Source: Candidatus Acetothermia bacterium (GTDB lineage Bacteria > Bipolaricaulota > Bipolaricaulia > UBA7950). From it: a stretch of DNA of 64,000 nucleotides. Position 1 is the first letter of the stretch. Each line of letters opens with the position of its first letter. The notes beneath the pieces were generated by a model. It was not told the origin of the DNA and made no database searches. It saw only the letters and a list, made by a program, of their open reading frames with translations. The translations under genes and the position numbers were made by a program. This document shows, in pieces, positions 17,332 to 57,005 of the stretch. The stretch is taken from positions 6,054 through 70,053 of the forward strand of contig JAJHSB010000062.1 of NCBI GenBank assembly GCA_022684035.1, read 5' to 3'.

Positions 17332-17463
17332 TAACAAAGCTCAGACTGAAGTTCCCCGGGACTTACACAATCGAATGATTCCCCTAACAAACTCGAGGGT
17401 TCTTTTAGATTATAGCTTTTCTGTTTGAGATTTTGGTGATTGGAATTTGTGATTTCAAATCCT

Positions 17464-18012: not shown

Positions 18013-18078
18013 TAGCCAGCTCGCGCACTACCACTAACATACATTCCAGCACCAGATGGTCATTGATCTTAGAGTCCA

Positions 18079-18255
18079 CTATGGTTGCTGGCACCAGTCC
18101 CCATATCTTAAGAATGCAGCCAGCCGCAAATATCTGGCGCTTTCTGACGAACAGGGATCACCGCTCCTTCTTCCCTTTTCTCCTCCGCCGAGAATCTCGT
18201 GTAATGGAGTCAAATCCAGAGCTTCTTGCTCAACTAAGACTTTGCCTTCAGTCAT
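18079..18255 (-). CDS. hypothetical 58-aa protein with strong RBS
   Basis: GAAGGAGGT sits 6 nt upstream of ATG. The product MTEGKVLVEQEALDLTPLHEILGGG... matches no family I recognise. Confidence 0.3.
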   Translation of the reverse strand: MTEGKVLVEQEALDLTPLHEILGGGEKGRRSGDPCSSESARYLRLAAFLRYGDWCQQP

Positions 18256-18317
18256 TGCTGTACCTCCTTCTCGTTCTTATCTTATACTAAACGCACTGGA
18301 GAATTGGTTAAGTTTAT

Positions 18318-18468
18318 CAAATCCTAAGCAAAAACAAATCCTAAATTCTAAGCACCAAATTCCAAACAAATTCAAAATCCGAATGTTCAAAACGTTTTGC
18401 ATTTTGAGTTTTGGTCATTTGGATTTGTTTAGGATTTAGAATTTAGGATTTAGGATTTCGTGCTTCGA
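18318..18468. repeat. MITE-like inverted-repeat element, family 2
   Basis: Arm aaatcctaaattctaagcaccaaattccaaacaaattc pairs with arm ttgagttttggtcatttggatttgtttaggatttagaatttaggatttaggattt. Confidence 0.7.
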
Positions 18469-18501
18469 GTTTCTCCTTAAATTTGCAAATCTGGAGTTCG
18501 C

Positions 18502-19242
18502 TCAGTATATCTCTACCCAACGGCCATCCTCCCCCCGCATTGCCAACACCAACTCAGCCACCGTCGGTGCGGCTATCTTAAAGATTGTCCGCGCCACCAT
18601 CTCGCTTAAACGATGGGCATCGCCACTGGAGACCATGGTAAACCCCCTGATCTGCGGAAATCGCTGGCGTACCTCTGACTCCTGACTGGAGCAAAGAATC
18701 TCCACCGCGGGTAGATCGAGATCCGGTGGTACAAATCCCAGGTTGGCGAGCAGACTGAAAGATGGCCGGTCCACATGGGCTGGTAAAGCCAACCCACCTA
18801 AGTCCTGTACCATCGCCACGACCATCTCCAGTGACATATCCGTCGAGGTCGCAAGAAGCCGTTCGTTGCGGCGTATATATTCACCACTGGCGTCAACGAC
18901 GAACTGGGCACCAAAATGATCCTCGTTATTCTTAAGATTAGGCAGGTGATTAAATACCTCCATCTGCCAGACTAATGCCTGCTGCGCTGTGTCGAAAAGA
19001 GTTACCACGTGCACTTCCTCGCGGGTTTGCACCTCAATGCCTGGTAAAACAGTGATCCCACTTCCCTGAGCAGCCTCGATCACCGCGGCCACATTCTCGG
19101 CGGAATTATGATCCGTAATCCCAATCAGTCCCAAACCCAACTCACGCGCCCGGCGAATGATGAGCGGTGGTATCATCTCCACTTCGGCACAAGGACTGAG
19201 CACCGTGTGGATGTGTAAATCTGCAAGCACATACTGGAACAT
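18502..19242 (-). CDS. PHP (polymerase/histidinol-phosphatase) domain protein, HfsA-like
   Basis: PHP metal-binding motifs LHIHTVLS...ITDHN. Confidence 0.8.
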   Translation of the reverse strand: MFQYVLADLHIHTVLSPCAEVEMIPPLIIRRARELGLGLIGITDHNSAENVAAVIEAAQGSGITVLPGIEVQTREEVHVVTLFDTAQQALVWQMEVFNHLPNLKNNEDHFGAQFVVDASGEYIRRNERLLATSTDMSLEMVVAMVQDLGGLALPAHVDRPSFSLLANLGFVPPDLDLPAVEILCSSQESEVRQRFPQIRGFTMVSSGDAHRLSEMVARTIFKIAAPTVAELVLAMRGEDGRWVEIY

Positions 19243-19255
19243 TCCGTAGTCTGAC

Positions 19256-19627
19256 TCAGTCAGTGCCCTGAATGCCCAACGCCGCCAGCTTACTGACCAC
19301 CGTGAACGTGGGGAGCGGCGTAGTCAGAATCGGAATATGCTCCTCATTGGCCTTCTCAATTGTTGCTTCTTCCAGCCTGCTTCCCTCGGTAATGATGATG
19401 CCGGTTAAGTTAAGTAGAGAGGCCACGGCTACAATGTTGACGTGGGCTTGCAAGGTTACCCAGATGTTGCCCGCTTGCGCCTTGGCCATCACGCAACTGA
19501 GTAAATCCGAGGCATATCCACCGGTGATCGTTTGGTCAAGAGTATCGCTTGCGGAAGCGACCCCCAGGTTCAAGGAGCTAACCACTTCCCGAAGTTTCAT
19601 TTCGCCCTCCCGGTCCATCTTTGCCAT
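19256..19627 (-). CDS. DRTGG domain protein
   Basis: A DRTGG fold of about 120 aa, commonly paired with CBS domains and GHKL ATPases. Confidence 0.7.
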   Translation of the reverse strand: MAKMDREGEMKLREVVSSLNLGVASASDTLDQTITGGYASDLLSCVMAKAQAGNIWVTLQAHVNIVAVASLLNLTGIIITEGSRLEEATIEKANEEHIPILTTPLPTFTVVSKLAALGIQGTD

Positions 19628-19643: not shown

Positions 19644-19900
19644 TCCTAAATCTTTTACTTATTCACCAAATCCTAACTCCTAAACTCTAAATTCTAAATC
19701 CTAAATTCTAAATCCTAAATTCTAAACAAATTTAAATGTTCCAAATCCAAATAACCAAAACTATGTTTTTCTACTTTCTGCATTTTTCTATTATTATTTC
19801 TCTTGCAAACTCCTCTGTTCTTCTCTCTAAATCATAAAGTTTTGAATTTTGGTCATTTGAGTTTTGAGTTTGTTTGGAGTTTAGAGTTTCGGATTTAGAC
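19644..19900. repeat. MITE-like inverted-repeat element, family 2 (larger copy)
   Basis: A tandem 14-mer (taaattctaaatcc)x3 arm, an AT-rich centre, then the inverse arm ttttgaattttggtcatttgagttttgagtttgtttggagtttagagtttcggatttag. Confidence 0.7.
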
Positions 19901-19943
19901 TTTTCCATAATTATTCCCTCTTCTTCTCAGAAAGACTGAACTG

Positions 19944-21286: not shown

Positions 21287-21293
21287 CCCCTCC

Positions 21294-21345
21294 CCTAACC
21301 CGGACAAGCCGGAAATTCCAATGACCAAATCCCAATAACGAAAAT
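21294..21345. repeat. family-1 MITE terminal fragment
   Basis: cccggacaagccggaaattccaatgaccaaatcccaataac matches the family-1 MITE terminus. Confidence 0.6.
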
Positions 21346-21523
21346 TAAATATCAAAGTTTAAATATCAAAATTACATATAAAAATACAAAAATTATTTCC
21401 CCAAACCCCTATACTTCCAATCATTGTTCAACTGATAACGTCGACTTGTTCTTGAGCTTATCATCTCTCACAGAGGTTGTCAAGGAATATCTTTGTTCCG
21501 AGCGATCTTTCTCCTGAAAGAAA

Positions 21524-34490: not shown

Positions 34491-36533
34491 TCAGTCTTTG
34501 ACGCACGAGATACTTTGTAAAGATAGCTGCGCCAACTTCTTCACCACCATCTCCTCAAAGATCGCTGGAAGGCGCTCTTCGGTCACTCCTTCAAGTATTT
34601 GTCCATCAATAACTGCTGATGGTCCACGATCGCATTGCTCAAGACAGAAAGTGGCTTGCACGTTGACGCGATCGGATAGTCCCTGCTTTTCAATCAAGGC
34701 TGCCAATTCTTGTATCACACCATAAGACCCTCGCAGATAGCAACTAGTGCCGACACAAACCTGGATCTCCATCGTAGGCCGCTCAGCGGCTACAACTGGG
34801 ATGAATTGTTCAAATACGCGCCGGCGTGAGGCGTAGGTAGTATGCAAGGCGTGGTGGGCAACATCGCTTCCTGGCTCCTTCAGCCATTGCTGGTAAAGTT
34901 CGCTAATGAATGGATTATCCTGTACTGTTCGTATCTGCTTCAGCCGGTCTGCTGCTCGCATACCTCCTGCTCGCTGCTGCCGGACCTGGATATTGTTGAT
35001 TAGGGGTTGTCCACCGCCAGCGACACATCCTCCTGGGCAGGCCATTACCTCCACCAGATGGTATGAGAGTTCTCCCGCGCGCAGGGCAGCGATCAACTTC
35101 TTGGCTGCCCCCAAAGTGTGTACCGTAGCGATGCGAATTACCCTGTTACCTACGGGTACGATAGCCTCATTCACATTGGGGAATCCCTCCACCGGAGTAA
35201 AGGCAAAATCAACCGGCGGCCTTTTCCCGGACAACTTATAGATCGCGGTTCGTATTACTGCCGTGCTCACTCCGCTGAAGACGCCGAAGATGGTGCCCGC
35301 ACCGCTAGCAAATCCAAATGGCAAATCGAAGGAGTCATCTTCAAGTTCCGCAAAGACGATTCCCATCTCGCGAATCATCCGCGCCAGTTCGTGAGTGGAA
35401 ATAACGGCGTCGACATCAGGACTTCCCTCTGTAGTGAGTTCCGGCCGCCTGGCCTCAAACTTCTTGGCTGTGCAGGGCATCACCGAAACCACAAAGATAT
35501 CCTGTGGGGAGAGCCCTTGTTCTTTGGCATAGAACTTCTTGAGCAGTGAGCCGAGCATCTGTTGGGGAGAACGGCAAGTTGAGAGTTGAGGCAGAAGATC
35601 AGAGTGGAAGTGTTCAGCATACTTTACCCACGCTGGACAGCAACTGGTAAATTGCGGTAGATGCTCCCCTGTTTCGAGATGATGCAAGAATTCGGTCGTT
35701 TCCTCCATCGTTGTCAAATCAGCAGCAAAAGAGGTATCGTAAATCTCGTGAAATCCCAGCCGACGCAGAGCAGCGACCATCTTACCGGTACTGATTGTGC
35801 CTGCTTTCTCCCCGAACTCTTCGCCCAGGGCGACGCGCACCGCCGGGGCTGTCTGAACGATCACTCGCTTATGTGGGTCGCTTAGAGCTGCCCAGACAGC
35901 ATCAATCTCGAATTTTATCGTCAGCGCAGCAGTAGGACAGGCCTGGATACACTGACCGCATCCCACACATTCCCCCTCAGCCAGAGATTTATTGAATGCC
36001 GGTATTACTTGTACTGCCGCACCCCGGTAGGCAAAGTCCAGCACTCCGATTCCTTGAATCTCGGAACAGTTGCGCACGCAGTTCCCACACAGCACGCACT
36101 TATTCGGATCGCGTACCAGGCTAGGGCTCGATGTGTCGCGCGGCAGTGGTTCTCGATCTTTACCAAAGCGAATATTGCCAATGCCGAAGCGGAGTGTTAA
36201 TTCCTGCAGCCGGCACTGGCCGCTCTTCTCACAGATAGTGCAATCACGATCGTGATCAGCGAGGAGCAGCTCCAGAATGGTGCGGCGCATTCGTTGCAAA
36301 CGAGGAGTAGTGGTGCGAATGACCATTCCGTCGGCTGGCGGGGTGGAGCAGGAAGCAATAAAGCCCAGTTTTTCTTCCTCTACTATACACATGCGGCATG
36401 CTCCGAAGTCCGATAACTCGAAGTGGTAACAGAAGGCCGGGAGATCCACACCGGCTTTGCGAACTAGCTCCAGGATGTTTGTTTCTCCATCGATGGGTAA
36501 GACTTTTTTGTCAATCGTGATTGTACCACTCAC
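34491..36533 (-). CDS. hydA: [FeFe]-hydrogenase catalytic subunit HydA (group A3, Thermotoga-type, with C-terminal thioredoxin-like 2Fe-2S domain)
   Basis: N-terminal 2Fe-2S and 4Fe-4S ferredoxin domains. H-cluster motifs L1 TSCCPAWV, L2 MPCTAKKFE and L3 EVMACPGGC. C-terminal NuoE-like CVGTSCY...CLEQCDRGP. GTG start with a GGAGGT RBS. Confidence 0.9.
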   Translation of the reverse strand: MSGTITIDKKVLPIDGETNILELVRKAGVDLPAFCYHFELSDFGACRMCIVEEEKLGFIASCSTPPADGMVIRTTTPRLQRMRRTILELLLADHDRDCTICEKSGQCRLQELTLRFGIGNIRFGKDREPLPRDTSSPSLVRDPNKCVLCGNCVRNCSEIQGIGVLDFAYRGAAVQVIPAFNKSLAEGECVGCGQCIQACPTAALTIKFEIDAVWAALSDPHKRVIVQTAPAVRVALGEEFGEKAGTISTGKMVAALRRLGFHEIYDTSFAADLTTMEETTEFLHHLETGEHLPQFTSCCPAWVKYAEHFHSDLLPQLSTCRSPQQMLGSLLKKFYAKEQGLSPQDIFVVSVMPCTAKKFEARRPELTTEGSPDVDAVISTHELARMIREMGIVFAELEDDSFDLPFGFASGAGTIFGVFSGVSTAVIRTAIYKLSGKRPPVDFAFTPVEGFPNVNEAIVPVGNRVIRIATVHTLGAAKKLIAALRAGELSYHLVEVMACPGGCVAGGGQPLINNIQVRQQRAGGMRAADRLKQIRTVQDNPFISELYQQWLKEPGSDVAHHALHTTYASRRRVFEQFIPVVAAERPTMEIQVCVGTSCYLRGSYGVIQELAALIEKQGLSDRVNVQATFCLEQCDRGPSAVIDGQILEGVTEERLPAIFEEMVVKKLAQLSLQSISCVKD

Positions 36534-36587: not shown

Positions 36588-36986
36588 TTATAAAACTATT
36601 CTTTCATATTCTAACTTCGGTCTTGCAAAATTTATTATTATTCCTAACTTTAACCCAGTTGCTTTAAGATAATTTATTACTTGAGCACGGTGAATATCAG
36701 TAATCTTCTCAACACACTTCATCTCTAAAATTATTTCATCCTCTACAAGTATATCAGCAAAATATTCGCCGACTATTTCTCCCTCAAAATGCACTTTGAG
36801 CGGTGCTTGCTGAACTACCTTCATCCCATTTTTATTCAATTTTATTATTACTGCATTTTCATACACTTTCTCTAAAAATCCTGCTCCAAGAGTATTATGC
36901 ACCTCCATTACTGCGCCTATCACTTTATAGGAAAGTTCTTTATGCAGTATTTTTTCGTGTTCATTAGTGTTCATTCGTGGTTTCAT
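36588..36986 (-). CDS. GxxExxY family protein (PD-(D/E)XK-like) inserted between hydB and hydA
   Basis: The family signature reads GAGFLEKVYENA; 132 aa. Its first 11 codons are encoded by a 30-bp repeat that also occurs intact directly after the hydB stop. Confidence 0.8.
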   Translation of the reverse strand: MKPRMNTNEHEKILHKELSYKVIGAVMEVHNTLGAGFLEKVYENAVIIKLNKNGMKVVQQAPLKVHFEGEIVGEYFADILVEDEIILEMKCVEKITDIHRAQVINYLKATGLKLGIIINFARPKLEYERIVL

Positions 36987-37119: not shown

Positions 37120-38943
37120 CTATTTAAGTCGTCCCGGAATGCATGTCACCGCGGCAAATCGCTCCGGGCATACACTCAAGCATATCCCACATCTGTTACA
37201 CTTATCCTGGTCTATAACGTGAACCTCTTTCTTACCACCTGTAATCGCTCCGATAGGGCACTTCCGCAGACAGATCATACAGGCTTTACATTTATCCGGC
37301 GCGATATAGTAAGAGATAAGCGGCGGGCACACCCTTGCGGGGCATTTTTGTTCACAGATATGAGCGATGTACTCATCATGGAAGTAGCGAAGCGTTGTGA
37401 GCACCGGGTTGGGAGCTGTTTTCCCCAGTTGACAGAGTGATCCATCCTTGACGGTAGTAGCTATTTCTTGTAGCAAATCGAGGTCCTCTTCCCGCCCATC
37501 TCCGCTGGTGATTCGGGTGAGAATCTCCAGCATCCGCTTCGTCCCCTCGCGACAGGGCACGCACTTACCACAGGATTCATTCTGGGTAAACTTCATAAAG
37601 TAGCGAGCTACCTCTACCATGCAATCATCCTCACTGAGAACTACCAGCCCGCCCGAACCCATGATCGCTCCTGCGGAGGTTAAAGATTCATAATCTATAC
37701 CATAATCCAGGTGTGTCGCCGGAAGGCATCCCCCAGAAGGGCCGCCTATTTGCACCGCCTTGAACTTTTTGCCGCCTTCTACACCTCCTCCGATATCAAA
37801 GATGATTTGGCGTATGGTGAGGCCAAATGGTATTTCGACCAATCCAGTGTTATTTACCTTTCCGGTCAAAGCGAAGGTCTTTGTCCCGGGATTAGTAGGT
37901 GTACCAAAGCTGCGAAACCAATCCGCCCCGTTTAATATGATTCCTGGTACATGGCCTAAAGTCTCGACGTTATTGATGACTGTCGGATTACCCCGCAGCC
38001 CTGAAGTTGCCGGAAAAGGAGGTCGCTGCCGTGGCATTCCACGTCTGCCTTCCATGGCAGCAATCATCGCCGTCTCTTCGCCGCAGACAAAGGCACCTGC
38101 CCCTTCCATGATATCGATCTGACAGGAGAAATCGCTTCCGAGAATCCCATCGCCAATCAAACTATATCCTTGGGCATCATCTATCGCCTGCTGCAAGCGC
38201 TTTACGGCGAGTGGGTACTCAGCTCGTACGTAATAAATATATCCCTGCCGAGCTCCAATCGCATAGGCGGCAATCAGCATTCCCTCTAATACCCGATGGG
38301 GATCGCCCTCAAGTAAGCTGCGGTTCATAAATGCCCCTGGATCACCCTCATCACCGTTACAGACCACATACTTCACCTCTCCGGGAGCGCGGTAAGCAAA
38401 CTCCCACTTCCGCCCAGTGGGGAACCCGGCACCGCCACGGCCGCGCAGGATTGAGCGTTTGATCTCTTCAATAACATCTTCCGGGTTCATTTCAAAGAGG
38501 GCTTTACCGAGAGCCTCATATCCACCCCGAGCGATATACTCCTCGATGTTCTCCGGATTAATCACACCGCAGTTGCCGAGAACAATACGCTGCTGCTTGG
38601 CGTAGAAGGGCATCTCGCTGTAGTGCGGCAAGGCCTGATGAGAGATCGGTTCTTTATAGGTAAGGGCTTCCACCACCCGACCTTTCACAAAGGTCTCCTC
38701 CACCAGATGAGGGATGTCTTTCTCCTGAACACGGCAGTAAAGAATTCCCTCGGGATAGATGATCACCAACGGGCCCATTTCGCAGAGCCCGTGACAACCG
38801 GTGAAAATTACCCGCACCTCATCTTCAAGGCCGCGGCGTGCAATCTCTACCTTCAGGAGATTGAATATCTTGTCCGCACCGGAGGCAACACATCCGGTAC
38901 CTCTACATACCAGGGCATTTGCTCGATAAAAAGCTTCAGTCAT
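37120..38943 (-). CDS. hydB: [FeFe]-hydrogenase beta subunit HydB (NuoF-like NADH/FMN-binding flavoprotein with 2Fe-2S and 2x4Fe-4S)
   Basis: NuoF motifs (GRGGAGFPTG, C-x2-C-x2-C-x3-CP pairs). Start reset to ATG 38943, which has an AAGGAGGT RBS; the ORF-track extension to 38988 runs into the MITE. Confidence 0.9.
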   Translation of the reverse strand: MTEAFYRANALVCRGTGCVASGADKIFNLLKVEIARRGLEDEVRVIFTGCHGLCEMGPLVIIYPEGILYCRVQEKDIPHLVEETFVKGRVVEALTYKEPISHQALPHYSEMPFYAKQQRIVLGNCGVINPENIEEYIARGGYEALGKALFEMNPEDVIEEIKRSILRGRGGAGFPTGRKWEFAYRAPGEVKYVVCNGDEGDPGAFMNRSLLEGDPHRVLEGMLIAAYAIGARQGYIYYVRAEYPLAVKRLQQAIDDAQGYSLIGDGILGSDFSCQIDIMEGAGAFVCGEETAMIAAMEGRRGMPRQRPPFPATSGLRGNPTVINNVETLGHVPGIILNGADWFRSFGTPTNPGTKTFALTGKVNNTGLVEIPFGLTIRQIIFDIGGGVEGGKKFKAVQIGGPSGGCLPATHLDYGIDYESLTSAGAIMGSGGLVVLSEDDCMVEVARYFMKFTQNESCGKCVPCREGTKRMLEILTRITSGDGREEDLDLLQEIATTVKDGSLCQLGKTAPNPVLTTLRYFHDEYIAHICEQKCPARVCPPLISYYIAPDKCKACMICLRKCPIGAITGGKKEVHVIDQDKCNRCGICLSVCPERFAAVTCIPGRLK

Positions 38944-38956
38944 CAGATTACCTCCT

Positions 38957-39200
38957 TCCCCGGACAAGCCGGAAATCCCAATAACCAAATCTCAATTTCC
39001 AAACAATAATCAAATTTCAATAATCAAACTTCTATTGCGATTTGTCGATAATCGAGGAGAAGACTCCGGCCTTTCTGTTTGAGATTTTGGTCATTGGTCA
39101 TTGAGCTTTGTTTGGAAATTGGTGCTTGGAATTTGTGATTTCAACTCCTTGCCATTCCCCGCCTTCGCGAGGACAAGTTTGCGTCAGATTTCAGATTTTG
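38957..39200. repeat. family-1 MITE-like element, about 245 bp, complete, inside the hyd operon
   Basis: Left arm ccggacaagccggaaatcccaataaccaaatctcaatttccaaacaataatcaaa. Right arm tttgagattttggtcattggtcattgagctttgtttggaaattggtgcttggaatttgtgatttcaa. About 90% identical, as reverse complement, to 55611-55865. Confidence 0.85.
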
Positions 39201-39215
39201 GGGACTTATAGATGA

Positions 39216-39590
39216 TCAGTCTCGTTCCACTCGGCCAAACGCCCATTCCTGGACCACGTTGCCCTTGACCAGATGCTCCTCGATCAGGCGAGAGACCATA
39301 TCGGGATGGACATTTCCATAGGTGATCCGCGGGTGACCGGCCTGTTCGATATCTACCAGTGGCTCCTTGTAGCACATTCCAATACAGCCCACAGTAGTCA
39401 CATGAGCATCGATCTCTCGCCGACGCAGCTCCTCCAGAATGGCGAGCATCGTCTCCCGTGCGCCGGCAGCGATCCCGCAGGTTCCCATACCCACGGTGAT
39501 CGTCGTTCCCGTTTTCAGCCGTACTTTAATATTCTTCTGAGCTTCTTCTCGGATTCGCTTCAGATCCTCCAAACTTTTCATCCGGGGCAT
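39216..39590 (-). CDS. thioredoxin-like [2Fe-2S] ferredoxin (NuoE-like fold) of the hydrogenase cluster
   Basis: CGIAAG...CIGMC cysteine pattern. ATG 39590 with an AAGGAGGA RBS. Confidence 0.8.
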   Translation of the reverse strand: MPRMKSLEDLKRIREEAQKNIKVRLKTGTTITVGMGTCGIAAGARETMLAILEELRRREIDAHVTTVGCIGMCYKEPLVDIEQAGHPRITYGNVHPDMVSRLIEEHLVKGNVVQEWAFGRVERD

Positions 39591-39647: not shown

Positions 39648-39890
39648 TTAGACCTTAAGCCCTTCCTTAAAATTCATTACATCAACGGTAACGCGGGAAA
39701 AGGGCTTTCCCTCTCTTTGAACCATGCTCTCCATTTCCTTATAAACTTCAGAGCTGAAGAACTTCTCGCCACACTGTTGACATACCTTTGCCGGAACATC
39801 CTCAAAAATAACCAGCTTCTCACCCTACCAGAAATCTACATTGACCTCCTCTTTCACCTTCCCCCCACAGAAATAGCACTTAGTTAACAT
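39648..39890 (-). pseudogene. YgiT-type zinc-finger (MqsA-like) antitoxin with in-frame TAG at codon 22
   Basis: MLTKCYFCGG...DFW*GEKLVIFEDVPAKVCQQCGEKFF shows the two CxxC pairs of the YgiT zinc finger. The in-frame amber codon sits at 39825-39827 and the frame stays open to 39648. The start is 3 nt after the DUF4258 stop. Confidence 0.6.
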
Positions 39891-39892
39891 TT

Positions 39893-40195
39893 CTATCTTC
39901 TCCTTGTTCTTAAATCCTCTTCCCATTCGGCGGGCTGTGGTTCGTACGCTATTATAATCTCCTCTTCTGCTTTACCGCAAACCACATGTAACGGTCTTCC
40001 TTCGTGAGTGAAGCCCAGGATCAGACAACTTGGTCCTCTATGATCACGTGGATAATCCTCGATTATCTCGCCTTTAGAAATAGCTTCTTCAATCTCCCGA
40101 ACGCCTATCCTTCTCCTTCGAATCTTTTCAGTATGTGTAAACGACCCATGATACTTCCCCTCTTTAACCTTCTGCCTAATTTCGTTTAAAGTCAC
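39893..40195 (-). CDS. DUF4258 protein (putative toxin of a DUF4258/YgiT-ZnF pair)
   Basis: The motifs GEIIEDYPRDHRGPSCLILGF...GRPLHVVCG...IIIAYEPQPAEWEEDLRTRRR match the DUF4258 consensus. GTG start. Confidence 0.8.
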   Translation of the reverse strand: MTLNEIRQKVKEGKYHGSFTHTEKIRRRRIGVREIEEAISKGEIIEDYPRDHRGPSCLILGFTHEGRPLHVVCGKAEEEIIIAYEPQPAEWEEDLRTRRR

Positions 40196-40276
40196 TCTCG
40201 ACCCCCTTTACGCACTTAAGAACCTTATGCCCAATGATGAAGTCAAATACTACATAGGGTTCTCATTGCAATCCTC

Positions 40277-40396
40277 CTAACCCGAACAAGCCGGAAATCC
40301 CAATGACCAAATCTCAAATTCCAAACAATAATCAAATTCCAATAACCAATCCCTGCCTTCGGCTCGTGGCTCGTGGCTCGTGGCTCGTGGCTCGAA
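40277..40396. repeat. family-1 MITE half-element plus (GGCTCGT)x5 heptamer array
   Basis: cccgaacaagccggaaatcccaatgaccaaatctcaaattccaaacaataatcaaattccaataaccaa followed by ggctcgtggctcgtggctcgtggctcgtggctcg. Confidence 0.8.
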
Positions 40397-40451: not shown

Positions 40452-40982
40452 TCAACTTTCCTTGCGACTGGCCAGCGTGTCGATAATAGTTACCGCCGCA
40501 TCCGGACTCATGTGAGCGTGTACCTGGCCGTTGATTGTCATTACCGGCGCCAGAGCGCAGCATCCAACACAAGCGACTGTCTCTAAGGTAAAGAGCATAT
40601 CTGAGGTGGTCGAGTCTCCCTCTTTGAGGTCATACTTACGGCAAATAGCGTCATAGATAGACATAGAGCGCTTGACGTGACAGGCTGTGCCATCGCATAC
40701 AGTCACCAAATAACGACCTTTGGGCTTAAGTGAGAACTGGGCGAAGAAAGTGGCCACCCCAAAGACAGTAGCTGGGGAAAGATCCAGTGCAGTAGCGATG
40801 TAGGTAAGAACCTCCTCAGGTAGGTAGCGATACTCTTCCTGCACCGCCTGCAAAATGGAGATCAGAGACTGATTGCGGCTAGTTTGCTCGGCGATTATCT
40901 CGTTCAAGCGGAAAAACCGGCGGCGCCTCCTGTCTCCATCTGGGGAGACTCGTATTTGCTGTTTACCCTGCTCAGTGCTCAT
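40452..40982 (-). CDS. hydC: [FeFe]-hydrogenase gamma subunit HydC (NuoE-like 2Fe-2S)
   Basis: CDGTACH...CVGCCALAP motif of the NuoE family. Confidence 0.9.
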   Translation of the reverse strand: MSTEQGKQQIRVSPDGDRRRRRFFRLNEIIAEQTSRNQSLISILQAVQEEYRYLPEEVLTYIATALDLSPATVFGVATFFAQFSLKPKGRYLVTVCDGTACHVKRSMSIYDAICRKYDLKEGDSTTSDMLFTLETVACVGCCALAPVMTINGQVHAHMSPDAAVTIIDTLASRKES

Positions 40983-41151: not shown

Positions 41152-41385
41152 CTAAATTCTGAAGTTTTGCGCAAAATGGCAAGGAATTGAAATCTCAAAT
41201 CCCAAGCACCAATTTCCAAACAAAGCTCAATGACCAATGACCAAAATCTCAGACAGAAAAGCCAGAGTATTTTTCTCGCTTAGGGACAAATTGCTCATAG
41301 AAGTTTGGTTATTGGGATTTGGTTATTGTTTGGAAATTGAGATTTGGTCATTGGGATTTCCAGCTTGTCCGGTTTAGGGACAGAA
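41152..41385. repeat. family-1 MITE-like element (complete copy)
   Basis: ctaaattctgaagttttgcgcaaaatgg...aatgaccaatgaccaaaatctca [about 50-bp core] tttggttattgggatttggttattgtttggaaattgagatttggtcattgggatttccagcttgtccgg. Confidence 0.85.
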
Positions 41386-41475
41386 CAAACTTTGTCGATT
41401 ACCGAACAAAAAATAGCCGGTCTGGACTTACGTGATCGCAATCCAGCCCGGCTATAAAGAGTTATCTTTTATCGT

Positions 41476-42520: not shown

Positions 42521-45500
42521 TTACTTACGAAAGACCGTGCCACGGAAGGTGTAGATTATAGCACCATCGCGCAACACAGCAACGAAGATATACGGCCCTT
42601 TAGCAAGTAGAACGCCGGCTTCATCCCGACCGTCCCAGACGACTTCCTCTCCAGGACCGACATCGTGCGCTATGATATCCCGTACCTCACGTCCGAGCAT
42701 ATTGAAGATCCTTATGGTAAACGTCTCGGCAACACCGACTCCTTTAAAGGAGAAGCGCGACCCCCGCTCATGGACGACGATGAACTCGTCAATCTCGAGG
42801 GGTGGTGGTACCACTACTACTGGTTTGACAGTGATCGTTACCGTAGTTATATCTGATATGCCGCCACGGTCATCCAGCGCACGGTAGGTAAAAGTAACGA
42901 TGCCGTGCCACCCAGCAGGCGGCGTAAAGGTGAAGGAGCCGTCAGGACGCAGATCCAACACGCCGTGGACAGGTGCTGTTACCAGTTGCGCTCGCAGTGG
43001 GTCATTATCCGGGTCAGTGTCATTTGCCAGTACTCCTGGCGCAGGAACAGTGAGAACCGTGTCCATAAGGACTGGATAGGTATCAGCTACTGCGACTGGC
43101 GGACGGTTGACGACTGCCACGACTCGTGTGGCGATCAATGCCGCATCACCAGGATCAGATGGATCCTGGAAAAAGGCGAGGATCGTATCACCGGTCCGTG
43201 CCCCAAGGTGCTCTACAAGTCTAATCGGCGTAACGCTGCGGAAAAGCCCGCTGCCAATCTCGGTCTCCCAGAGCACTACCCGCACCCTCACATTTGTGCG
43301 TGAGTTGAAGACTTCAATTAGTATTGAAGGGTGTTCTACCTCTGGAACTGAAACGAGCGATTCACGTCGGTAATTATCTTCGTTCTGATCCGGGTCATAG
43401 ACCTCGATAAAGGCCGCTTCAGCGATCGTATAGCCGATGACCGGCACGCCGGCAGCATCGACAAATCGCATATTGAGACGACCGGTTTTACCATCAAAGA
43501 CCAGTGTGCGACTGACTTCCATCTCCGCGAATGCGACCCGGTAATGAGCATACCAGTAGGTGATCCGCTCGGGTTCAGCAGGATAACTTGCAACCTCTAC
43601 CGCGTTAAACTGGACAATCACTGCACTCCGATTGAACGTCTCAAGGTCCTTATTACCCAGATCGAACGGAGCCCATGGAGGTTCAGCGATGCCACCAGCC
43701 CATACCACTGGATAGAGACCCAGACCGGTTCGAGCGCGAAAGATCGGTGCGTTGACTCCAACCTCATCGAGGATGATCCATTCCCGGTCAGTAGATTGAG
43801 GGCTAAATATCTGCACCACGACCGCGTCGCGTGCTCGACGGTTGCGATTGAGAGGAGAGTACATTACCTCAACATTGATCCGGTCACGACCGAGGTCAAA
43901 TTCCTCTGGGCGAGTCCAATCTGCGGCAGCAAAGTAAATTTGAGGACTTACCACCGGCGTGCGTATTGCATATGCAGTGTCAAACGCCACATCACTGAAG
44001 TCATTCGGATCAACGTAAAACGCAGCAAGGACATATTCTACCCGCAGGCGCGTAAATCCGAGCGCTCTCTGAATATCGATAAGCCTGAGCTCAAATATAC
44101 CGGTATTGGCACCTGTCTCCTGAGCAAAGAAGACGATGCGAGTTAGTCCGGGTCCGGCCGGATCTCCGGGGAGCGGAGCACCGGCAACATTTAGTGTGTC
44201 AAAGCCATACCCACGCCCTTCGTTATTGATAAGACGCATAGGTTCACCAGGCCGAGCCATATCGACAACATAGACGATAAAGCGATCCGGATCATAGATA
44301 TTGTACCAGCGGATCGGTTCGCCGCGACAGACCCAGCTCTTTATCGGGGGAGGCACATCAGGCGCAGTGACAGTGATCGTTACCGTTGCCGGTCCTGATA
44401 CACCGCCTCTAACATCTCTTGCGTGGTAGGTAAAGGTGACGATGCCGAAGAACCTGACCGGCGGCGTGAAGGTAAAGGAGCCGTCAGGACGCAGATCCAA
44501 CACGCCATGGGCAGGTCTTTCTACCAGCACTGCGCTCAGTGGGGCAGCAACCGGAGCCACGGTGTCATTTGCCAGTACTCCTAGCGCAGGAACAGTGAGA
44601 ATTTCCCCCCATGGTATAGTATAAGTATTAGGGAGCGCGACCGGCGGAGTAAATCCAAGGGGATGAGCAACAGTGATTGTTACCGTTGTCTCTGGTATTG
44701 TAACCAATCCTGATACGCCGCCTGTAGAATCTACTGCGCGGTAGGTAAAGGTGACGATACCGAAGAACCCGCGTGGTGGGCTAAAGGTAAAGGAGCCGTC
44801 AGGACGCAGATCCAACACGCCGTGGGATACCGGACGTACCAGCACTGCTCTCAGTGGGAAGTTACCGTCCGGGTCAGTGTCATTTGCCAGTACTCCTGGT
44901 ACTCCTGGTACTCCTGCAGTGAGAACCAGGTCCATAGGGACTGTATAGAAGAGATCAGCTACTGCGACTGGCAACAGAAAGCCGGCACGCAGAACAGTGA
45001 TCGATACCGTTGCCGGTTCTGATACACCGCCTCTAATATCTTCTTCTGCGCGGTAGGTAAAGGTGACAACACCGTGAAAGTCGGGCGGTGGCGTGAAGGT
45101 AAAGGAACCGTCAGGACGCAGATCCAACACGCCGTGGCATACCGGACGTACCAGCACTGCTCTCAGTGGGGCACCATCCGGAGCCACGATGTCATTTGCC
45201 AGTACTCCTGCTGGCAGCGCAGCAACGCGGAGAATTCCCCTCCATTGTATTGTATAAGTATTAGGGAGCGCGACCGGCGGAGTCTGGAGTGCCGGATCCA
45301 CAGAGATTCCTTCTACTCCGCCTGATTCAAACAACATCTGGAAATTTGTGGCGCTTCGCCCTCGCGCGGCAGGAAATTGAATTGGCTCAGGACCAGCAGC
45401 AGATATCTCAACTGGATTCCACGACCCTGGATTGACGATGATAAATATTGGTACCTCTTCTACTTCCATCGGGTCCAGGTTCTCATCAGGATCAGTAATC

Positions 45501-46246
45501 CTGATCAGAGCATCGTCCTCCTCTATGTCAGGGTAATGCGTTTTGTCCCAGGTAATTGTGGCTTCAGTCCGGATGATCTGCACCATTGCACTGGCAGCAT
45601 CAGCCTGATCTATCGCCGATATATAGAACCCGATCAGCGTATCGCCATCGACAAACCGGCCAAGACGTGGCGGGTAAGGAGAAAGGGTAGGGCGTGCGAC
45701 ATCCCTTTGGCCTGCGCCACCTAAGCGAAATGTGTCGCCCAGCGCGAATTCCAGTGGGATTATCCACATTTCTGGCAGCGGCGGCACTTGCAACGGCCGC
45801 AGCGGCGCTGGAATGTGCGTTCCGAGTGGAAGCCTTGTTCTGATTACATCCTCAGGATGCAGCACACGTGCACCGATGATGATCGCTTCTGAAAGGACAA
45901 AGTAGCCGGTATTAGGTCCGGTCTCCTCCAAATAGCGCTTAGGTGCGCCGTCCTTTAGTTCTGCAAGCCAGGCAGGGTTAAGCTCAAGGCGGGTATTAGG
46001 GTTAAAAACGCTGATCTCTATGGCAGCTATTCTATCAGGTTCAGCAGAATCGATATTACGGTCTGGATCAAAGACAACGATCCAGAGCCTATCTCCTGCT
46101 CTGACCTCTGTCACCCTGTCTCCGCGCTGGCCCAAAGGACACCGGGAAAACCATATCTCAGGTGCACTTGCCAGCGCATCGCCGGAAAAAACCGCGATGA
46201 AGAGAAGGGTTGCCAGACCGATTATATGAAACTTCTTGTTATTCAA
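42521..46246 (-). CDS. giant cell-surface protein with about 95-aa cadherin/VCBS-like repeats and a T9SS type-A C-terminal sorting domain
   Basis: Signal peptide. At least 4 repeats of the pattern VLANDTDPDG..LRAVLV.P.HGVLDLRPDGSFTFTPP..F.GIVTFTYRA.D..GG.S. The last about 70 aa (IRIFNMLGREV...VWDGRDEAGVLLAKGPYIFVAVL...FRGTVFRK) resemble Por_Secre_tail/FlgD-Ig. The gene contains near-identical DNA repeats of about 45 bp and longer. Confidence 0.75.
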   Translation of the reverse strand: MNNKKFHIIGLATLLFIAVFSGDALASAPEIWFSRCPLGQRGDRVTEVRAGDRLWIVVFDPDRNIDSAEPDRIAAIEISVFNPNTRLELNPAWLAELKDGAPKRYLEETGPNTGYFVLSEAIIIGARVLHPEDVIRTRLPLGTHIPAPLRPLQVPPLPEMWIIPLEFALGDTFRLGGAGQRDVARPTLSPYPPRLGRFVDGDTLIGFYISAIDQADAASAMVQIIRTEATITWDKTHYPDIEEDDALIRITDPDENLDPMEVEEVPIFIIVNPGSWNPVEISAAGPEPIQFPAARGRSATNFQMLFESGGVEGISVDPALQTPPVALPNTYTIQWRGILRVAALPAGVLANDIVAPDGAPLRAVLVRPVCHGVLDLRPDGSFTFTPPPDFHGVVTFTYRAEEDIRGGVSEPATVSITVLRAGFLLPVAVADLFYTVPMDLVLTAGVPGVPGVLANDTDPDGNFPLRAVLVRPVSHGVLDLRPDGSFTFSPPRGFFGIVTFTYRAVDSTGGVSGLVTIPETTVTITVAHPLGFTPPVALPNTYTIPWGEILTVPALGVLANDTVAPVAAPLSAVLVERPAHGVLDLRPDGSFTFTPPVRFFGIVTFTYHARDVRGGVSGPATVTITVTAPDVPPPIKSWVCRGEPIRWYNIYDPDRFIVYVVDMARPGEPMRLINNEGRGYGFDTLNVAGAPLPGDPAGPGLTRIVFFAQETGANTGIFELRLIDIQRALGFTRLRVEYVLAAFYVDPNDFSDVAFDTAYAIRTPVVSPQIYFAAADWTRPEEFDLGRDRINVEVMYSPLNRNRRARDAVVVQIFSPQSTDREWIILDEVGVNAPIFRARTGLGLYPVVWAGGIAEPPWAPFDLGNKDLETFNRSAVIVQFNAVEVASYPAEPERITYWYAHYRVAFAEMEVSRTLVFDGKTGRLNMRFVDAAGVPVIGYTIAEAAFIEVYDPDQNEDNYRRESLVSVPEVEHPSILIEVFNSRTNVRVRVVLWETEIGSGLFRSVTPIRLVEHLGARTGDTILAFFQDPSDPGDAALIATRVVAVVNRPPVAVADTYPVLMDTVLTVPAPGVLANDTDPDNDPLRAQLVTAPVHGVLDLRPDGSFTFTPPAGWHGIVTFTYRALDDRGGISDITTVTITVKPVVVVPPPLEIDEFIVVHERGSRFSFKGVGVAETFTIRIFNMLGREVRDIIAHDVGPGEEVVWDGRDEAGVLLAKGPYIFVAVLRDGAIIYTFRGTVFRK

Positions 46247-46264
46247 TTTACGACCTCCTTAAAT

Positions 46265-53606: not shown

Positions 53607-53896
53607 TTATTTATTAAAAGATAATGATACATTCTATATAAAATCTATCTTCCATGTTTTCTGCTTCTTTTTAATTCTTACTGTGTCGCCACTAAAATGA
53701 AGTATCCACTTGACTTTTGCAAAGAGATATATATAATTAATTTAATGTCTATGTTGTTGTGGGCAACTTGGCGAGACAGTTGTACAACTCTTCTTTGCCT
53801 GCTGCTCGGCAACTGAAAAGAAAATCGACAATAGCAAGAGGTGGTCGGTCGAGTAAGTTGATTATAGATTAATCATAGTTAAAATAGACGTTAAAA

Positions 53897-54340
53897 GCCA
53901 GATAAACCTAACGGAGGTAAATGCGATGACCGGAAAAAAGGACATCAAAAAGCCAGATAAGCCTAATGTCGGCAAGAGCGATGCCCAGAAAAAAGGGCCA
54001 GCAAAAAGATAGATAAACCTAATGGAGGTAAATGCGATGACCGGAAAAAAGGACATCAAAAAGCCAGATAAGCCTAACGGCGGCAAGAGCGATGCCCAGA
54101 AAAAAGGGCCACAAAAAGCTAGATAAGTATAGCTAACGTAGGAGCGATGCCCAGAAAAAAGGGCAAAAACAAAAGAACAGATAACAATAGCGGAGGTAAG
54201 AGCGATGGCCGAAAAAAAGGGCAGCAAAAAGCCAGATAAGTCTAGCCAACGTAAGAGCGATGCCCAGAAAAAAGGGCAAAAACAAAAGAACAGATAACAA
54301 TAGCGGAGGTAAGAGCGATGGCCGAAAAAAAGGGCAAAAA
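53897..54340. repeat. tandem array (about 8 units of 50-60 bp) duplicating the RBS, start codon and first codons of the downstream beta-CA gene
   Basis: Units follow the form gccagataaRcctaaYgg(a/c)gg(t/c)aa(a/g)Ngcgatg(a/c/g)ccNgaaaaaaggNc...aaaaa. Each unit carries GGAGGTAA-N-GCGATG and short Lys-rich ORFs (for example MTGKKDIKKPDKPNVGKSDAQKKGPAKR*). The last unit is the real gene start at 54318. Confidence 0.85.
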
Positions 54341-55373
54341 CAACAAAAAGCCTGATAAGACTATCGGTATACTTCTGGTTGTAGTCGTTGGTTTAGCGCT
54401 ATATTCTGCTCTATTTATGTCATTTACTCTGCCGGGAATTGGCGGTCGATTAGCAGAGCTCCGCGATGATGTAGGAGCGATTGTCGCCAATGTCGCTGGC
54501 TTAGTAGCACCGATAAGAGCAGAAGTAACAGGTGTACGCGCAGAAGTAACTGGTGTACGCGCAGAAATGGCAGCTGTGGGAGATGCTGTAGCAGTAACCC
54601 GCACTCAAATAATAGCCCAAATAGAAGCTTTGGAAGAAGCGCTAACCCCAGAATACTATCTCCGTCCCGCTGATCTAACGCAAAATCCGGAGGCAGCATG
54701 GCAGGAACTGACGGTAGGTAACGCACGGTTCATTGCCGGTGCAACAGTAGTACGGGATTGGGCCGCATTGCGAAAAAAGCATGCAGTTGGACAATGGCCG
54801 TTTGTTTCCATTGTCTCTTGCTCCGACTCCAGATTCTCTCCGGAAGTAATCTTCGATCAGGGGATCGGCGATGTATTTAGCGTCCGTACCGCGGGCAATA
54901 TAGTTGATGAGATAGCATTAGGCTCGCTCGAATTTTCAGTCAATGTGCTTGGAGCTCCATTGATAGTTGTGCTCGGGCACGAGGGTTGTGGTGCGGTATT
55001 TTCTACTGTCGATGCTCTGAAAGAAGTACTTAAGCTTCCGCCTGGGTTTGAGCCCGACAAGTTGATGTATGTTGTCGGTGAGATCATCCCTGCAGCGGAA
55101 GAAGCAATCGCAACAGGAAAAACCGGGATTGAACTCAGAGAATATGCGACGACAGTGAACGTCCGTATAGTCGCAGCAGAAATCATCATCGACGCATTTG
55201 GGATTGCCGACGCTATCCGAAGGGGAGATGTTATCGTCATTGGCGCTAAGGTCATGTTCGATGGCACCGTCACCGAACTATTTCGGGTAGATGAAGCTAA
55301 TATCGACGAGTTTATCGCCGCAATGGTTTATCTCAGAGATATTGCCGGACAACCATGTGAATGTTGCAGCTAA
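54318..55373 (+). CDS. membrane-anchored beta-class carbonic anhydrase with Lys-rich N-terminus, a TM helix and RAEVTGV heptad repeats
   Basis: Beta-CA motifs CSDSR and HEGCGAV in the C-terminal 200 aa. The N-terminus is MAEKKGKNNKKPDK followed by a hydrophobic helix and RAEVTGVRAEVTGVRAEMAAV. Confidence 0.8.
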   Translation: MAEKKGKNNKKPDKTIGILLVVVVGLALYSALFMSFTLPGIGGRLAELRDDVGAIVANVAGLVAPIRAEVTGVRAEVTGVRAEMAAVGDAVAVTRTQIIAQIEALEEALTPEYYLRPADLTQNPEAAWQELTVGNARFIAGATVVRDWAALRKKHAVGQWPFVSIVSCSDSRFSPEVIFDQGIGDVFSVRTAGNIVDEIALGSLEFSVNVLGAPLIVVLGHEGCGAVFSTVDALKEVLKLPPGFEPDKLMYVVGEIIPAAEEAIATGKTGIELREYATTVNVRIVAAEIIIDAFGIADAIRRGDVIVIGAKVMFDGTVTELFRVDEANIDEFIAAMVYLRDIAGQPCECCS

Positions 55374-55610
55374 TATCAATGCGTTTACCAAAGTAGGGCA
55401 GTCCGAAGAGACCGTCCGGTAGCTGTACAAGTAGAAGTAGGGGCGATCTGCACACCGCCCCTACTTTTTATTAGATAGAGCTTGTCTAAAAACTCCAATG
55501 ACGATTTCCTATGGAAGCAGCAGTTTTTAGACAGCCTCAATAGATAGAGGTGTTTGACACCATAAGAATTTCAAAGTGCAGAATAAAGTAGATAGACTAG
55601 ACTATTAGGG

Positions 55611-55920
55611 TCTAAAATCTAAAGTCTTGCGCAAACTTGTCCTCGCGAAGGCGGGGAATGGAAAGAAGTTAAACTCACAAATTCCAAGCACCAATTTCCA
55701 AACAAATCTCAATGACCAATGACCAAAATCTCAAACAGAAAGGCCGGAGTCTTTTCCTCGATTGTCGACAAATCGCTCATAGAAGTTTGGTTATTAGGAT
55801 TTGGTTATTGTTTGGAAATTGAGATTTGGTCATTGGGATTTCCGGCTTGTCCGGGTTAGGGGCAAAACAAACTCTGTAGGATTAAGCAACGGGATTGCTT
55901 CGCAGACTCACAATGACAAA
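55611..55920. repeat. family-1 MITE-like element (complete) plus 'gcaatgac' tail, 5' of the tRNA cluster
   Basis: ggtctaaaatctaaagtcttgcgcaaa ... aatgaccaatgaccaaaatctcaaacag [core] tttggttattaggatttggttattgtttggaaattgagatttggtcattgggatttccggcttgtccgggttagg, then gggattgcttcgcagactcacaatgac. Confidence 0.85.
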
Positions 55921-55988: not shown

Positions 55989-56060
55989 GCGGGAGTAGCT
56001 CAGTGGTAGAGCACTGCCTTGCCAAGGCAGACGTCGCGGGTTCGAATCCCGTTTCCCGCT
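55989..56060 (+). tRNA. tRNA-Gly (GCC)
   Basis: GCGGGAGTAGCTCAGTGGTAGAGCACTGCCTTGCCAAGGCAG...TTCGAATCCCGTTTCCCGCT, with anticodon loop ttGCCaa. Confidence 0.85.
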
Positions 56061-56099
56061 TAGCCTCGTTAATCGATATTACGTTAGCGTACTACGATC

Positions 56100-56185
56100 G
56101 CCGGGGTGGCGGAATTGGCAGACGCAAGGGACTTAAAATCCTTTGAGGGTATCCCCTCGTGCGGGTTCAAGTCCCGCTCCCGGCA
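56100..56185 (+). tRNA. tRNA-Leu (TAA)
   Basis: 86 nt with a long variable arm; anticodon loop ctTAAaa. Confidence 0.8.
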
Positions 56186-56204
56186 AAGAGAAAGATAAAG
56201 ATAT

Positions 56205-56278
56205 CGCGGGGTGGAGCAACCTGGAAGCTCGTCGGGCTCATAACCCGGAGGTTGTCGGTTCGAATCCGACCCCCGCAA
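56205..56278 (+). tRNA. tRNA-fMet initiator (CAT), copy 1
   Basis: C1:A72 mismatch and three G-C pairs in the anticodon stem (gggCTCATAAccc). Confidence 0.8.
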
Positions 56279-56302
56279 CTAGTTGCAATATTTAGTATTT
56301 AC

Positions 56303-56376
56303 CGCGGGGTGGAGCAACCTGGAAGCTCGTCGGGCTCATAACCCGGAGGTTGTCGGTTCGAATCCGACTCCCGCAA
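56303..56376 (+). tRNA. tRNA-fMet initiator (CAT), copy 2
   Basis: Near-identical to copy 1, differing by 1 nt in the acceptor 3' strand. Confidence 0.8.
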
Positions 56377-56388
56377 CTATGTCAAGTC

Positions 56389-56463
56389 GGCGACGTAGCT
56401 CAACCGGCTTAGAGCGCTCGGCTCATATCCGAGAGGTTCAGGGTTCAAGTCCCTGCGTCGCCA
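56389..56463 (+). tRNA. tRNA with CAT anticodon (elongator Met or lysidine-modified Ile2)
   Basis: GGCGACGTAGCTCAACCGGCTAGAGCGCTCGGCTCATATCCGAG...TTCAAGTCCCTGCGTCGCCA. I cannot tell Met from Ile2 by eye. Confidence 0.7.
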
Positions 56464-56467
56464 TATC

Positions 56468-56541
56468 GGGGGTGTAGCTCTAACTGGGAGAGCGCTGCGT
56501 TCGCATCGCAGAGGATGGCGGTTCGAATCCGCTCACCTCCA
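56468..56541 (+). tRNA. tRNA-Ala (CGC)
   Basis: G3:U70 in the acceptor stem; anticodon loop ttCGCat. Confidence 0.75.
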
Positions 56542-56605
56542 TTCTCTGTCATTGCGAGAGTTCGCAGAACTCGTGGCAATCTCAAAGAGATAATTCTCGT
56601 TTAGA

Positions 56606-57005
56606 TGCTAAAATCTGAAGTCTTGCGCAAAATGGAAAGGAATTGAAATCACAAATTCCAAGCACCAATAACTAACTACCAGAAAGAGTGACTCGTGACT
56701 CGTGACTGGTAACTGGAGGGGAAGATCCCACGAGCCACGAGTCACGAACCACGAGTCACGAACCACGAGCCACGAGCCGAAGGCAGGGATTGGTTATTGG
56801 GATTTGGTTATTGTTTGGAAATTGAGATTTGGTCATTGGGATTTCCGGCTTGTCCGGGTTAGGGGCAAAACAAACTCTGTAGGATTATAAGGAATGAGAT
56901 TGCTTCGCTGACTCGCAATGACAAAGGAAGGTAATTTGCAATGACCTGCGAAGAGACTCGCAATGACCTGTCTGCGTGCGGGAGACGTACAGGCAGGCGG
57001 AATAG
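56606..57005. repeat. family-1 MITE-like element with internal heptamer arrays plus 'gcaatgac' tail, 3' of the tRNA cluster
   Basis: The core contains gactcgtgactcgtgactggtaactgg and the inverse array cacgagccacgagtcacgaaccacgagtcacgaaccacgagccacgagcc. Arms as in the other family-1 copies. The tail gagattgcttcgctgactcgcaatgacaaaggaaggtaatttgcaatgacc is about 95% identical, as reverse complement, to 46541-46592. Confidence 0.85.

Follow-up and report, generated by a model that had tools for sequence, protein, structure and literature searches.

Lesions in both genes of a DUF4258/YgiT toxin–antitoxin cassette within the hnd hydrogenase cluster of a Candidatus Acetothermia bacterium

The DUF4258/YgiT cassette and its lesions

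The stretch of DNA analysed here, referred to as the window, comprises 64,000 nucleotides of contig JAJHSB010000062.1 (positions 6,054 to 70,053, forward strand) from assembly GCA_022684035.1 of a Candidatus Acetothermia bacterium. On its minus strand, among genes of an [FeFe]-hydrogenase (hnd) cluster, lie two small adjoining genes with the order and family membership of a type II toxin–antitoxin (TA) cassette: a DUF4258 toxin gene followed by a YgiT-type zinc-ribbon antitoxin gene. Three lineage-specific lesions are found in their 181 codons, namely a 6-nt deletion in the toxin gene, a 3-nt deletion in the antitoxin gene and a change from TGG to TAG at Trp22 of the antitoxin. We consider it likely that this toxin-first cassette has undergone recent, ordinary pseudogenisation, in which the toxin was probably disabled or weakened and the antitoxin then lost. 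The coordinates of all features are given in Table 1.

The toxin gene has an AGGGGG Shine-Dalgarno sequence upstream of its GTG start. Its product matches the Pfam family PF14076 (DUF4258) with E=5.6e-21 and 75.1 bits against a cut-off of 25, in agreement with the initial annotation. The predicted model of the protein has the topology expected of the BECR (Barnase-EndoU-ColicinE5/D-RelE) fold, placing it in this predicted α+β class, which is MqsR/RelE-like. No sequence relative was found in the PDB by phmmer, and a profile search of the PDB gave only spurious matches to Kelch repeats, through a YePxxxeW motif. Ntox49, which a 2026 bioRxiv preprint equates with DUF4258 (10.64898/2026.08.28.747851), has a conserved His and a [KR] as its signature (Zhang et al. 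2012, PMC3482391), and both are retained in the window toxin, as H70 and R98. The comparison set consisted of 120 homologs that are 45-80% identical to the window toxin, except for P0040 (99%), which belongs to the same lineage (assembly JAPDMH01). H70 is present in all 120 and R98 in 119, with a gap in the remaining one. All nine residues that are invariant in a 44-sequence alignment (E46, S56, L58, G61, H70, C73, P86, W91 and R98) are likewise kept.

The toxin had initially been described as intact. Its open reading frame (ORF) is indeed open, but it carries a 6-nt in-frame deletion, which is the main addition made here to the earlier account. In the DNA alignment, the relatives read GAGATTATAATCATTACAGCATATGA at this site (EIIIITAYE), whereas the window reads GAGATTATAAT, a gap of six nucleotides and then AGCGTACGA (EIIIAYE); in the protein, EEIIIITAYEP becomes EEEIIIAYEP. 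The deletion removes the Thr of a (I/V)(I/V)T(A/V/L)YEP motif, the column of which is now filled by Ile. This Thr, a position conserved across the subfamily rather than a published defining residue, is kept in 118 of the 120 homologs, the exceptions being P0040 and one gapped sequence; Thr, replaced once by Ser, is likewise found in those more distant genomic relatives that preserve the motif region. The Pfam match ends correspondingly early: it covers profile positions 8-66 of 71, whereas seven close homologs reach 71/71, and among these sequences the window toxin alone is unaligned to the last five positions.

In the predicted model, the lost Thr would lie within the last β-strand (E78-84), and the deletion shortens the last β-hairpin. 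The terminal strand of BECR proteins carries the second conserved His in colicin-like proteins and RNase T2, and a Ser/Thr in EndoU-like proteins (10.64898/2026.08.28.747851). From its position in the modelled strand and this general BECR literature, we infer that the Thr may be functionally important. The window toxin, while open as a reading frame, is not pristine.

The antitoxin gene begins after a gap of only 2 nt ('aa') from the toxin stop codon, its ATG (at 39890) starting at the third base rather than 3 nt downstream as first described. The frame reads MLTKCYFCGGKVKEEVNVDFW, the TAG, and then GEKLVIFEDVPAKVCQQCGEKFFSSEVYKEMESMVQREGKPFSRVTVDVMNFKEGLKV to a TAA at 39648-39650; that is, 21 codons, the TAG and 58 further open codons, as originally noted. 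Beyond the TAG it continues as GEKLVIFEDVPAKVCQQCGEKFF and ends in GLKV before the stop. Four Cys codons (5, 8, 37 and 40) make up two CxxC knuckles, with the TAG between them, so that no uninterrupted ORF spans both. With X at codon 22, the conceptual protein matches the NCBIfam model TIGR03831 (YgiT_finger) with E=7e-14 and 51.8 bits, well above the cut-off of 20.2, which bears out the proposed YgiT/MqsA-type zinc finger. Against TIGR03830, the full-length MqsA model comprising zinc domain and helix-turn-helix (HTH), it scores 22 bits, below the cut-off of 61.8.

Nineteen antitoxin homologs were retrieved from a database of 5.8 billion protein clusters. The top eleven are 74-84% identical to the window antitoxin, and most are 79-93 residues long, commonly 81, apart from one of 129 residues and a truncated one of 63. 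The best (84% identity, E=3.6e-38) aligns on both sides of the TAG, and since full-length 81-residue homologs do so at up to this identity, the frame beyond the TAG is not open by chance. Codon 22 is spanned without interruption in 17 of the 19 and is a stop in none, and none ends there, contrary to one of the possibilities raised initially. Both knuckles lie in one uninterrupted sequence in 16; of the others, the first knuckle is missing from P0018 and has a single substitution in both P0010 and P0015. At least 90% have Trp in the codon-22 column (FWWGEK; consensus VDFWWGEKLVIF). The ancestral codon, which the initial annotation proposed to establish by alignment with relatives, is TGG: the DNA of the nearest relatives reads TTTTGGTGGGGTGAG where the window reads TTCTGGTAGGGTGAG, TGG is found at codon 22 in loci L058, L052 and L001, and a scan of metagenome contigs with a degenerate TRG pattern gave four matches, all TGG. 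The TAG therefore derives from a conserved Trp codon by one G>A transition, TGG>TAG. A second change, the loss of one codon from a Glu column, is found in the window only, both in the protein alignment (A1) and in the DNA alignment.

Neither piece of the interrupted antitoxin can form the zinc ribbon. Of the four zinc ligands, the 21-residue N-terminal product retains just C5 and C8. By the ORF list and its translation, no in-frame ATG, GTG or TTG occurs between the TAG and M53, and the product that would start at M53 is free of Cys.

These lesions are real, being fixed in every available assembly of the lineage and absent from all relatives. An identical TAG and an identical toxin are present in GCA_025994725.1 (contig JAPDMH010000002.1), which is 99.88% identical to the window over 10.4 kb, with 13 differences that all lie outside the cassette, and again in SRR35810028 as assembled by Logan, which is 99.83% identical, its two mismatches both lying within the upstream repeat. 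The codon-22 TAG is accordingly shared by loci L047 and L051; five further Logan contigs, all with an identical toxin, are linked to L047 by grouping alone. An intact antitoxin allele of this lineage was not found in the 5.8-billion-cluster database, in which the nearest sequence is 84% identical. In the NCBI record (locus tags LM599_), the protein accessions run consecutively over HndB, DUF4258 and NuoE (MCI2425485, 486 and 487), so the antitoxin has no protein record. Separately, 10 of the 13 differences from GCA_025994725.1 are concentrated in a 130-bp segment (42952-43081) inside an internally repeated cadherin-like gene, a cadherin/Big_9-repeat ORF of 1246 codons (42521-46258; region 42826-45283, minus strand); their clustering suggests repeat-copy variation or assembly collapse.

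Table 1. Features of the cassette, of its surroundings and of decayed related loci (window coordinates unless a locus is named)
Feature	Position	Strand	Remarks
DUF4258 toxin ORF	40195..39893	minus	GTG start, 100 aa, stop TAG at 39893-39895
6-nt in-frame deletion site in toxin	39950..39958	minus	codons I80-I81-I82; DNA alignment
YgiT-type (MqsA N-terminal-domain-like) zinc-ribbon antitoxin pseudogene	39890..39648	minus	80 codons, TIGR03831
3-nt in-frame deletion in antitoxin	39846..39854	minus	one Glu codon lost, KVK-EEV vs relatives' KVKEEEV
In-frame TAG, antitoxin codon 22	39825-39827	minus ('cta' on + strand)	between CxxC knuckles
Sole canonical in-frame restart product past TAG	39648..39734	minus	28 aa from ATG M53, both CxxC missing
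MITE-like repeat copy	40273..40394	.	between hndA-like gene and toxin start; GGCTCGT x4.9 heptamer array at end
hndA (NuoE-like 2Fe-2S) remnant, second pseudogene	18017-18300	minus	residues ~27-47 and 135-162 recognisable, in different frames
Locus L036			in-frame stop in toxin
Loci L044, L046			large internal toxin deletions
Locus L045			toxin frameshift
Loci L053-57, L068	1150-1457 (L068)		last 20-25 toxin codons only, then intact 'orphan' antitoxin
Loci L048-50	about 2960-3192		deletion joining toxin LHVVCGKAD to antitoxin WGEKL (codon W22); integrase fragment adjoining

Probable decay of the cassette and rival explanations

Comparison with related loci shows how unusual this arrangement is. 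Approximately 37 of them combine an intact toxin with sufficient sequence downstream, and in none of these is the zinc-ribbon ORF interrupted; the view that a broken antitoxin beside an open toxin is unexpected was well founded. Decay of this subfamily is nevertheless common elsewhere (L036, L044-46, L048-50, L053-57 and L068). In all of the decayed relatives found, the toxin has been lost, in two groups along with part of the antitoxin. Such a bias is expected of a toxin that does harm once its partner is absent, and it makes the configuration in the window atypical unless the toxin had already been disabled. Loci L048-L050, L053-L057 and L068, which come from Chloroflexota and Dehalococcoidia metagenome-assembled genomes (MAGs) and from metagenomes, represent separate instances of decay within this TA subfamily. 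No relatives were found in viral contigs, and there was no PADLOC match to a defence system.

The likely course of events can be set out as follows. In the intact relatives, the BECR-fold toxin of ~100 residues is a predicted RNase, presumably neutralised by direct binding of the 81-residue antitoxin, as the N-terminal domain of MqsA binds MqsR. In the window lineage, the toxin lesion would first have disabled or weakened the toxin; the antitoxin would then no longer have been under selection and could be lost, the nonsense mutation following. Both genes would now be neutral relics, probably carried on a read-through transcript of the hydrogenase cluster. An inactive toxin was among the four explanations offered in the initial annotation, and is the one favoured by the evidence. 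There are documented cases of TA genes that are orphaned or degenerate and whose active sites are altered (PMC7354431), and the presence of another pseudogene in the same window, the hndA remnant, provides a supporting context.

Decay that is recent also agrees with the substitution rates. Between the window and its relatives, the ratio of non-synonymous to synonymous substitution rates (dN/dS) ranges from 0.10 to 0.24 in the toxin gene and from 0.15 to 0.21 in the antitoxin gene, compared with 0.12-0.32 for the intact relatives among themselves at similar divergence (dS at least 0.2). The loss of constraint is therefore recent in comparison with the separation from known relatives, which fits the otherwise clean 58-codon tail of the antitoxin. 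An ancient decay is argued against by these ratios, which give no sign of long-term relaxation.

Several points weigh against the account of decay given above. The toxin keeps all nine invariant residues, including the His and [KR] of Ntox49/DUF4258, and its 75 Pfam bits and expected BECR topology mean that activity may persist. Both the essentiality of the Thr and the toxicity of DUF4258 proteins are predictions. The scan of metagenome contigs for the TRG pattern yielded no intermediate allele, either the toxin deletion with TGG or the TAG with an intact toxin; its four matches all have an intact ITAYEP or ITSYEP, and none exceeds 84% identity. The toxin-first order of events is therefore a proposed one. 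Finally, the absence of a trans-acting antitoxin or a suppressor tRNA applies to the 64-kb window only.

The toxin could instead still be active, and be tolerated either because a paralogous YgiT/MqsA-type antitoxin encoded elsewhere neutralises it in trans or because it is too weakly expressed. This we regard as unlikely. The retention of H70, R98 and the other invariant residues, together with a good Shine-Dalgarno sequence and start codon, would suit an active toxin, and other families provide documented instances of orphan toxins and of cross-neutralisation (PMC7354431). By tblastn, however, neither gene has a paralog within the 64 kb of the window, and none of the 19 antitoxin database matches is labelled Acetothermia. 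The toxin lesion is unique and falls at a 98%-conserved position. Nor is silence obviously guaranteed, as no terminator-like site is present on the gene strand from the hndA-like gene to the toxin.

A further reading, which we consider improbable, is that the DUF4258 protein remains functional and is kept as a solitary RNase, attenuated by the two-residue deletion so that an antitoxin is no longer needed, and co-transcribed with the rearranged [FeFe]-hydrogenase genes. If it were true, this would be a case of natural toxin domestication, and the Thr of ITAYEP would tune toxicity in an uncharacterised toxin family. It is slightly less probable that DUF4258 proteins of this kind are not harmful alone, or only conditionally so, in which case loss of the partner would be free whatever the toxin lesion does; in keeping with this, neither activity nor toxicity has been shown experimentally for any member (PMC11980606 Table 1).

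The remaining explanations concern the TAG itself. If it were decoded, by an amber suppressor tRNA, as pyrrolysine or by leaky read-through, a full-length antitoxin would still be made. The 58 codons after the TAG are open and conserved, but a nonsense mutation of recent origin would be expected to leave the frame open as well. In the window TAG is an ordinary stop: it ends 9 of the 60 long ORFs (at least 150 codons), including that of the NuoF-like hndC, and shows no excess where one open frame adjoins the next, and on these two grounds genome-wide reassignment was rejected. ARAGORN and Rfam identified no tRNA with a CUA anticodon among the seven tRNAs of the window, and no tRNA-Pyl or suppressor tRNA; the amber-suppressor check proposed initially thus found none, over a search that spans these 64 kb only. 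An in-frame TAG is conserved in none of the 19 antitoxin proteins and in none of the genomic or metagenomic loci, which have W or TGG there instead. As no homolog has TAG at or near codon 22, nothing suggests programmed recoding, and the earlier suggestion of read-through or suppression, now very unlikely, finds no support.

It is highly improbable that the TAG stems from an error of sequencing or assembly, or that it represents a minor variant in the population. The source is a MAG, but the same base occurs in three separately assembled records that differ from one another at other positions, and an intact allele is absent from the protein database; assembly error, one of the explanations first put forward, is effectively excluded by these three records. 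Re-initiation past the TAG, yielding a functional C-terminal fragment or a split two-piece antitoxin, is the least credible proposal and was rejected, since beyond the open frame nothing speaks for it, the first canonical start, M53, lies past the second CxxC, two of the four zinc-binding Cys, C5 and C8, would be missing from any C-terminal fragment, and no homolog is split there.

Genomic surroundings

The cassette lies between an hndA-like gene (NuoE-like, 40452-40982) and hndB (39216-39590), which is followed by hndC (37120-38988). In relatives (L059-L067) whose HndB shares a protein cluster at 90% identity with that of the window (90% for the L062 copy), the order is PHP-hndA-HATPase_c-hndB-hndC, without interruption. 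In the window, by contrast, PHP, what remains of a decayed hndA, and HATPase_c are found at 17479-19323, some 21 kb away from hndB-hndC, and are 72-83% identical to those of the relatives; hndB-hndC are now preceded by a divergent hndA-like gene (36% identical), a repeat and the TA cassette. The cassette therefore stands at a rearrangement junction in a genome with other gene decay. Part of the slot of the hndA remnant is filled by a repeat resembling a miniature inverted-repeat transposable element (MITE).

Copies of this dispersed MITE-like repeat, which is rich in heptamer arrays, flank the cassette; the copy next to the toxin start is outside the function of the module. As a family, the repeats are intergenic, ~120-280 nt long and 89-94% identical, and occur in both orientations (38954-39211, 40273-40394, 41175-41395, 55602-55884 and 56601-56927, with further positions at 17415-17455, 18336-18459, 19668-19904 and 21291-21367). 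They contain sub-repeats of 7, 14 and 25 nt, such as TTGGTCA, GGCTCGT and AAATCTCAATAACC, and fill most of the intergenic spaces of the hydrogenase cluster as well as the flanks of a tRNA cluster. They match no Rfam family. A scan for sigma-70 promoters and terminators around the cassette was uninformative. No terminator-like site was found on the coding strand between the cassette and its flanking genes, and read-through transcription of the cassette is plausible.

Three other features of the window may be mentioned. A gene of the PDDEXK_3 family, encoding 132 residues (36588-36986, minus strand), lies between hndC and the hndD-like gene for the [FeFe]-hydrogenase large subunit (34491-36533), and is another small insertion inside the hydrogenase operon. 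A tandem array at 53890-54348 consists of eight units of 55-58 nt that are 64-93% identical and rich in AAAAAG/GCGATG, and overlaps ORFs on both strands. The tRNA cluster (55989-56541, plus strand; Gly-Leu-Met-Met-Met-Ala) has MITE-like repeats on both sides and includes three consecutive tRNA-Met(CAT) genes, two of which are 98% identical.

Relation to known systems and significance

The cassette most closely resembles the bicistronic DUF4258-MqsA/YgiT modules described by Gerdes (2025, PMC11980606), with which it shares the two families and the tight toxin-then-antitoxin order with a gap of a few nucleotides, as also seen in L052 and L058. Identity to the closest relatives is 76-80% in the toxin and 84% in the antitoxin. 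It differs from these modules in that its antitoxin is interrupted by the TAG and its toxin lacks the Thr through a two-codon deletion, neither lesion being present in the relatives examined. In the same compilation, the function of DUF4258 is listed as unknown, with zero references, and no member has an experimentally shown activity or toxicity.

The likeness to MqsR/MqsA of Escherichia coli (YgiU/YgiT, PDB 3HI2) is more limited. The window toxin has no detectable sequence similarity to MqsR. The antitoxin is a short form without the C-terminal HTH DNA-binding domain of MqsA, its family being only ~81 residues long, and it therefore cannot regulate itself in the manner of MqsA. With the Ntox49/colicin-like BECR RNase toxins (PMC3482391; 10.64898/2026.08.28.747851), the toxin has in common the His and [KR] signature (H70 and R98) and the predicted α+β BECR topology. 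Those domains, however, are mostly found at the C-termini of secreted polymorphic toxins with Imm partners, whereas the window toxin is a free-standing TA protein.

Degenerate and orphan TA loci offer a further comparison. In those reviewed in PMC7354431 (a Caulobacter parE pseudogene, a frameshifted Shigella yacB and the VapC orphans of Mycobacterium tuberculosis), a partner has been lost by point mutation, and altered toxin residues cast doubt on activity, as they do in the window. The disrupted ORF in such loci is usually that of the toxin, as it also is in L036, L044-46, L053-57 and L068; in the window, the overt stop is in the antitoxin, and the toxin has a deletion that is easily missed because it keeps the frame.

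As it stands, the locus is one more decaying chromosomal TA cassette in a MAG, and matters little. It does indicate that, before the pairing of an intact toxin ORF with a broken antitoxin is called paradoxical, the toxin should be compared with what its family conserves, as an in-frame toxin lesion is invisible to gene callers and to a reader without search tools. A second modest point concerns the DUF4258 family, which has ~6,000 members, with activity, target and catalytic residue shown experimentally for none. The Thr of the (I/V)(I/V)TxYEP strand is a candidate essential residue of the family, with the testable prediction that it would be needed for toxicity, and the natural allele in the window provides a ready-made loss-of-function hypothesis for DUF4258.
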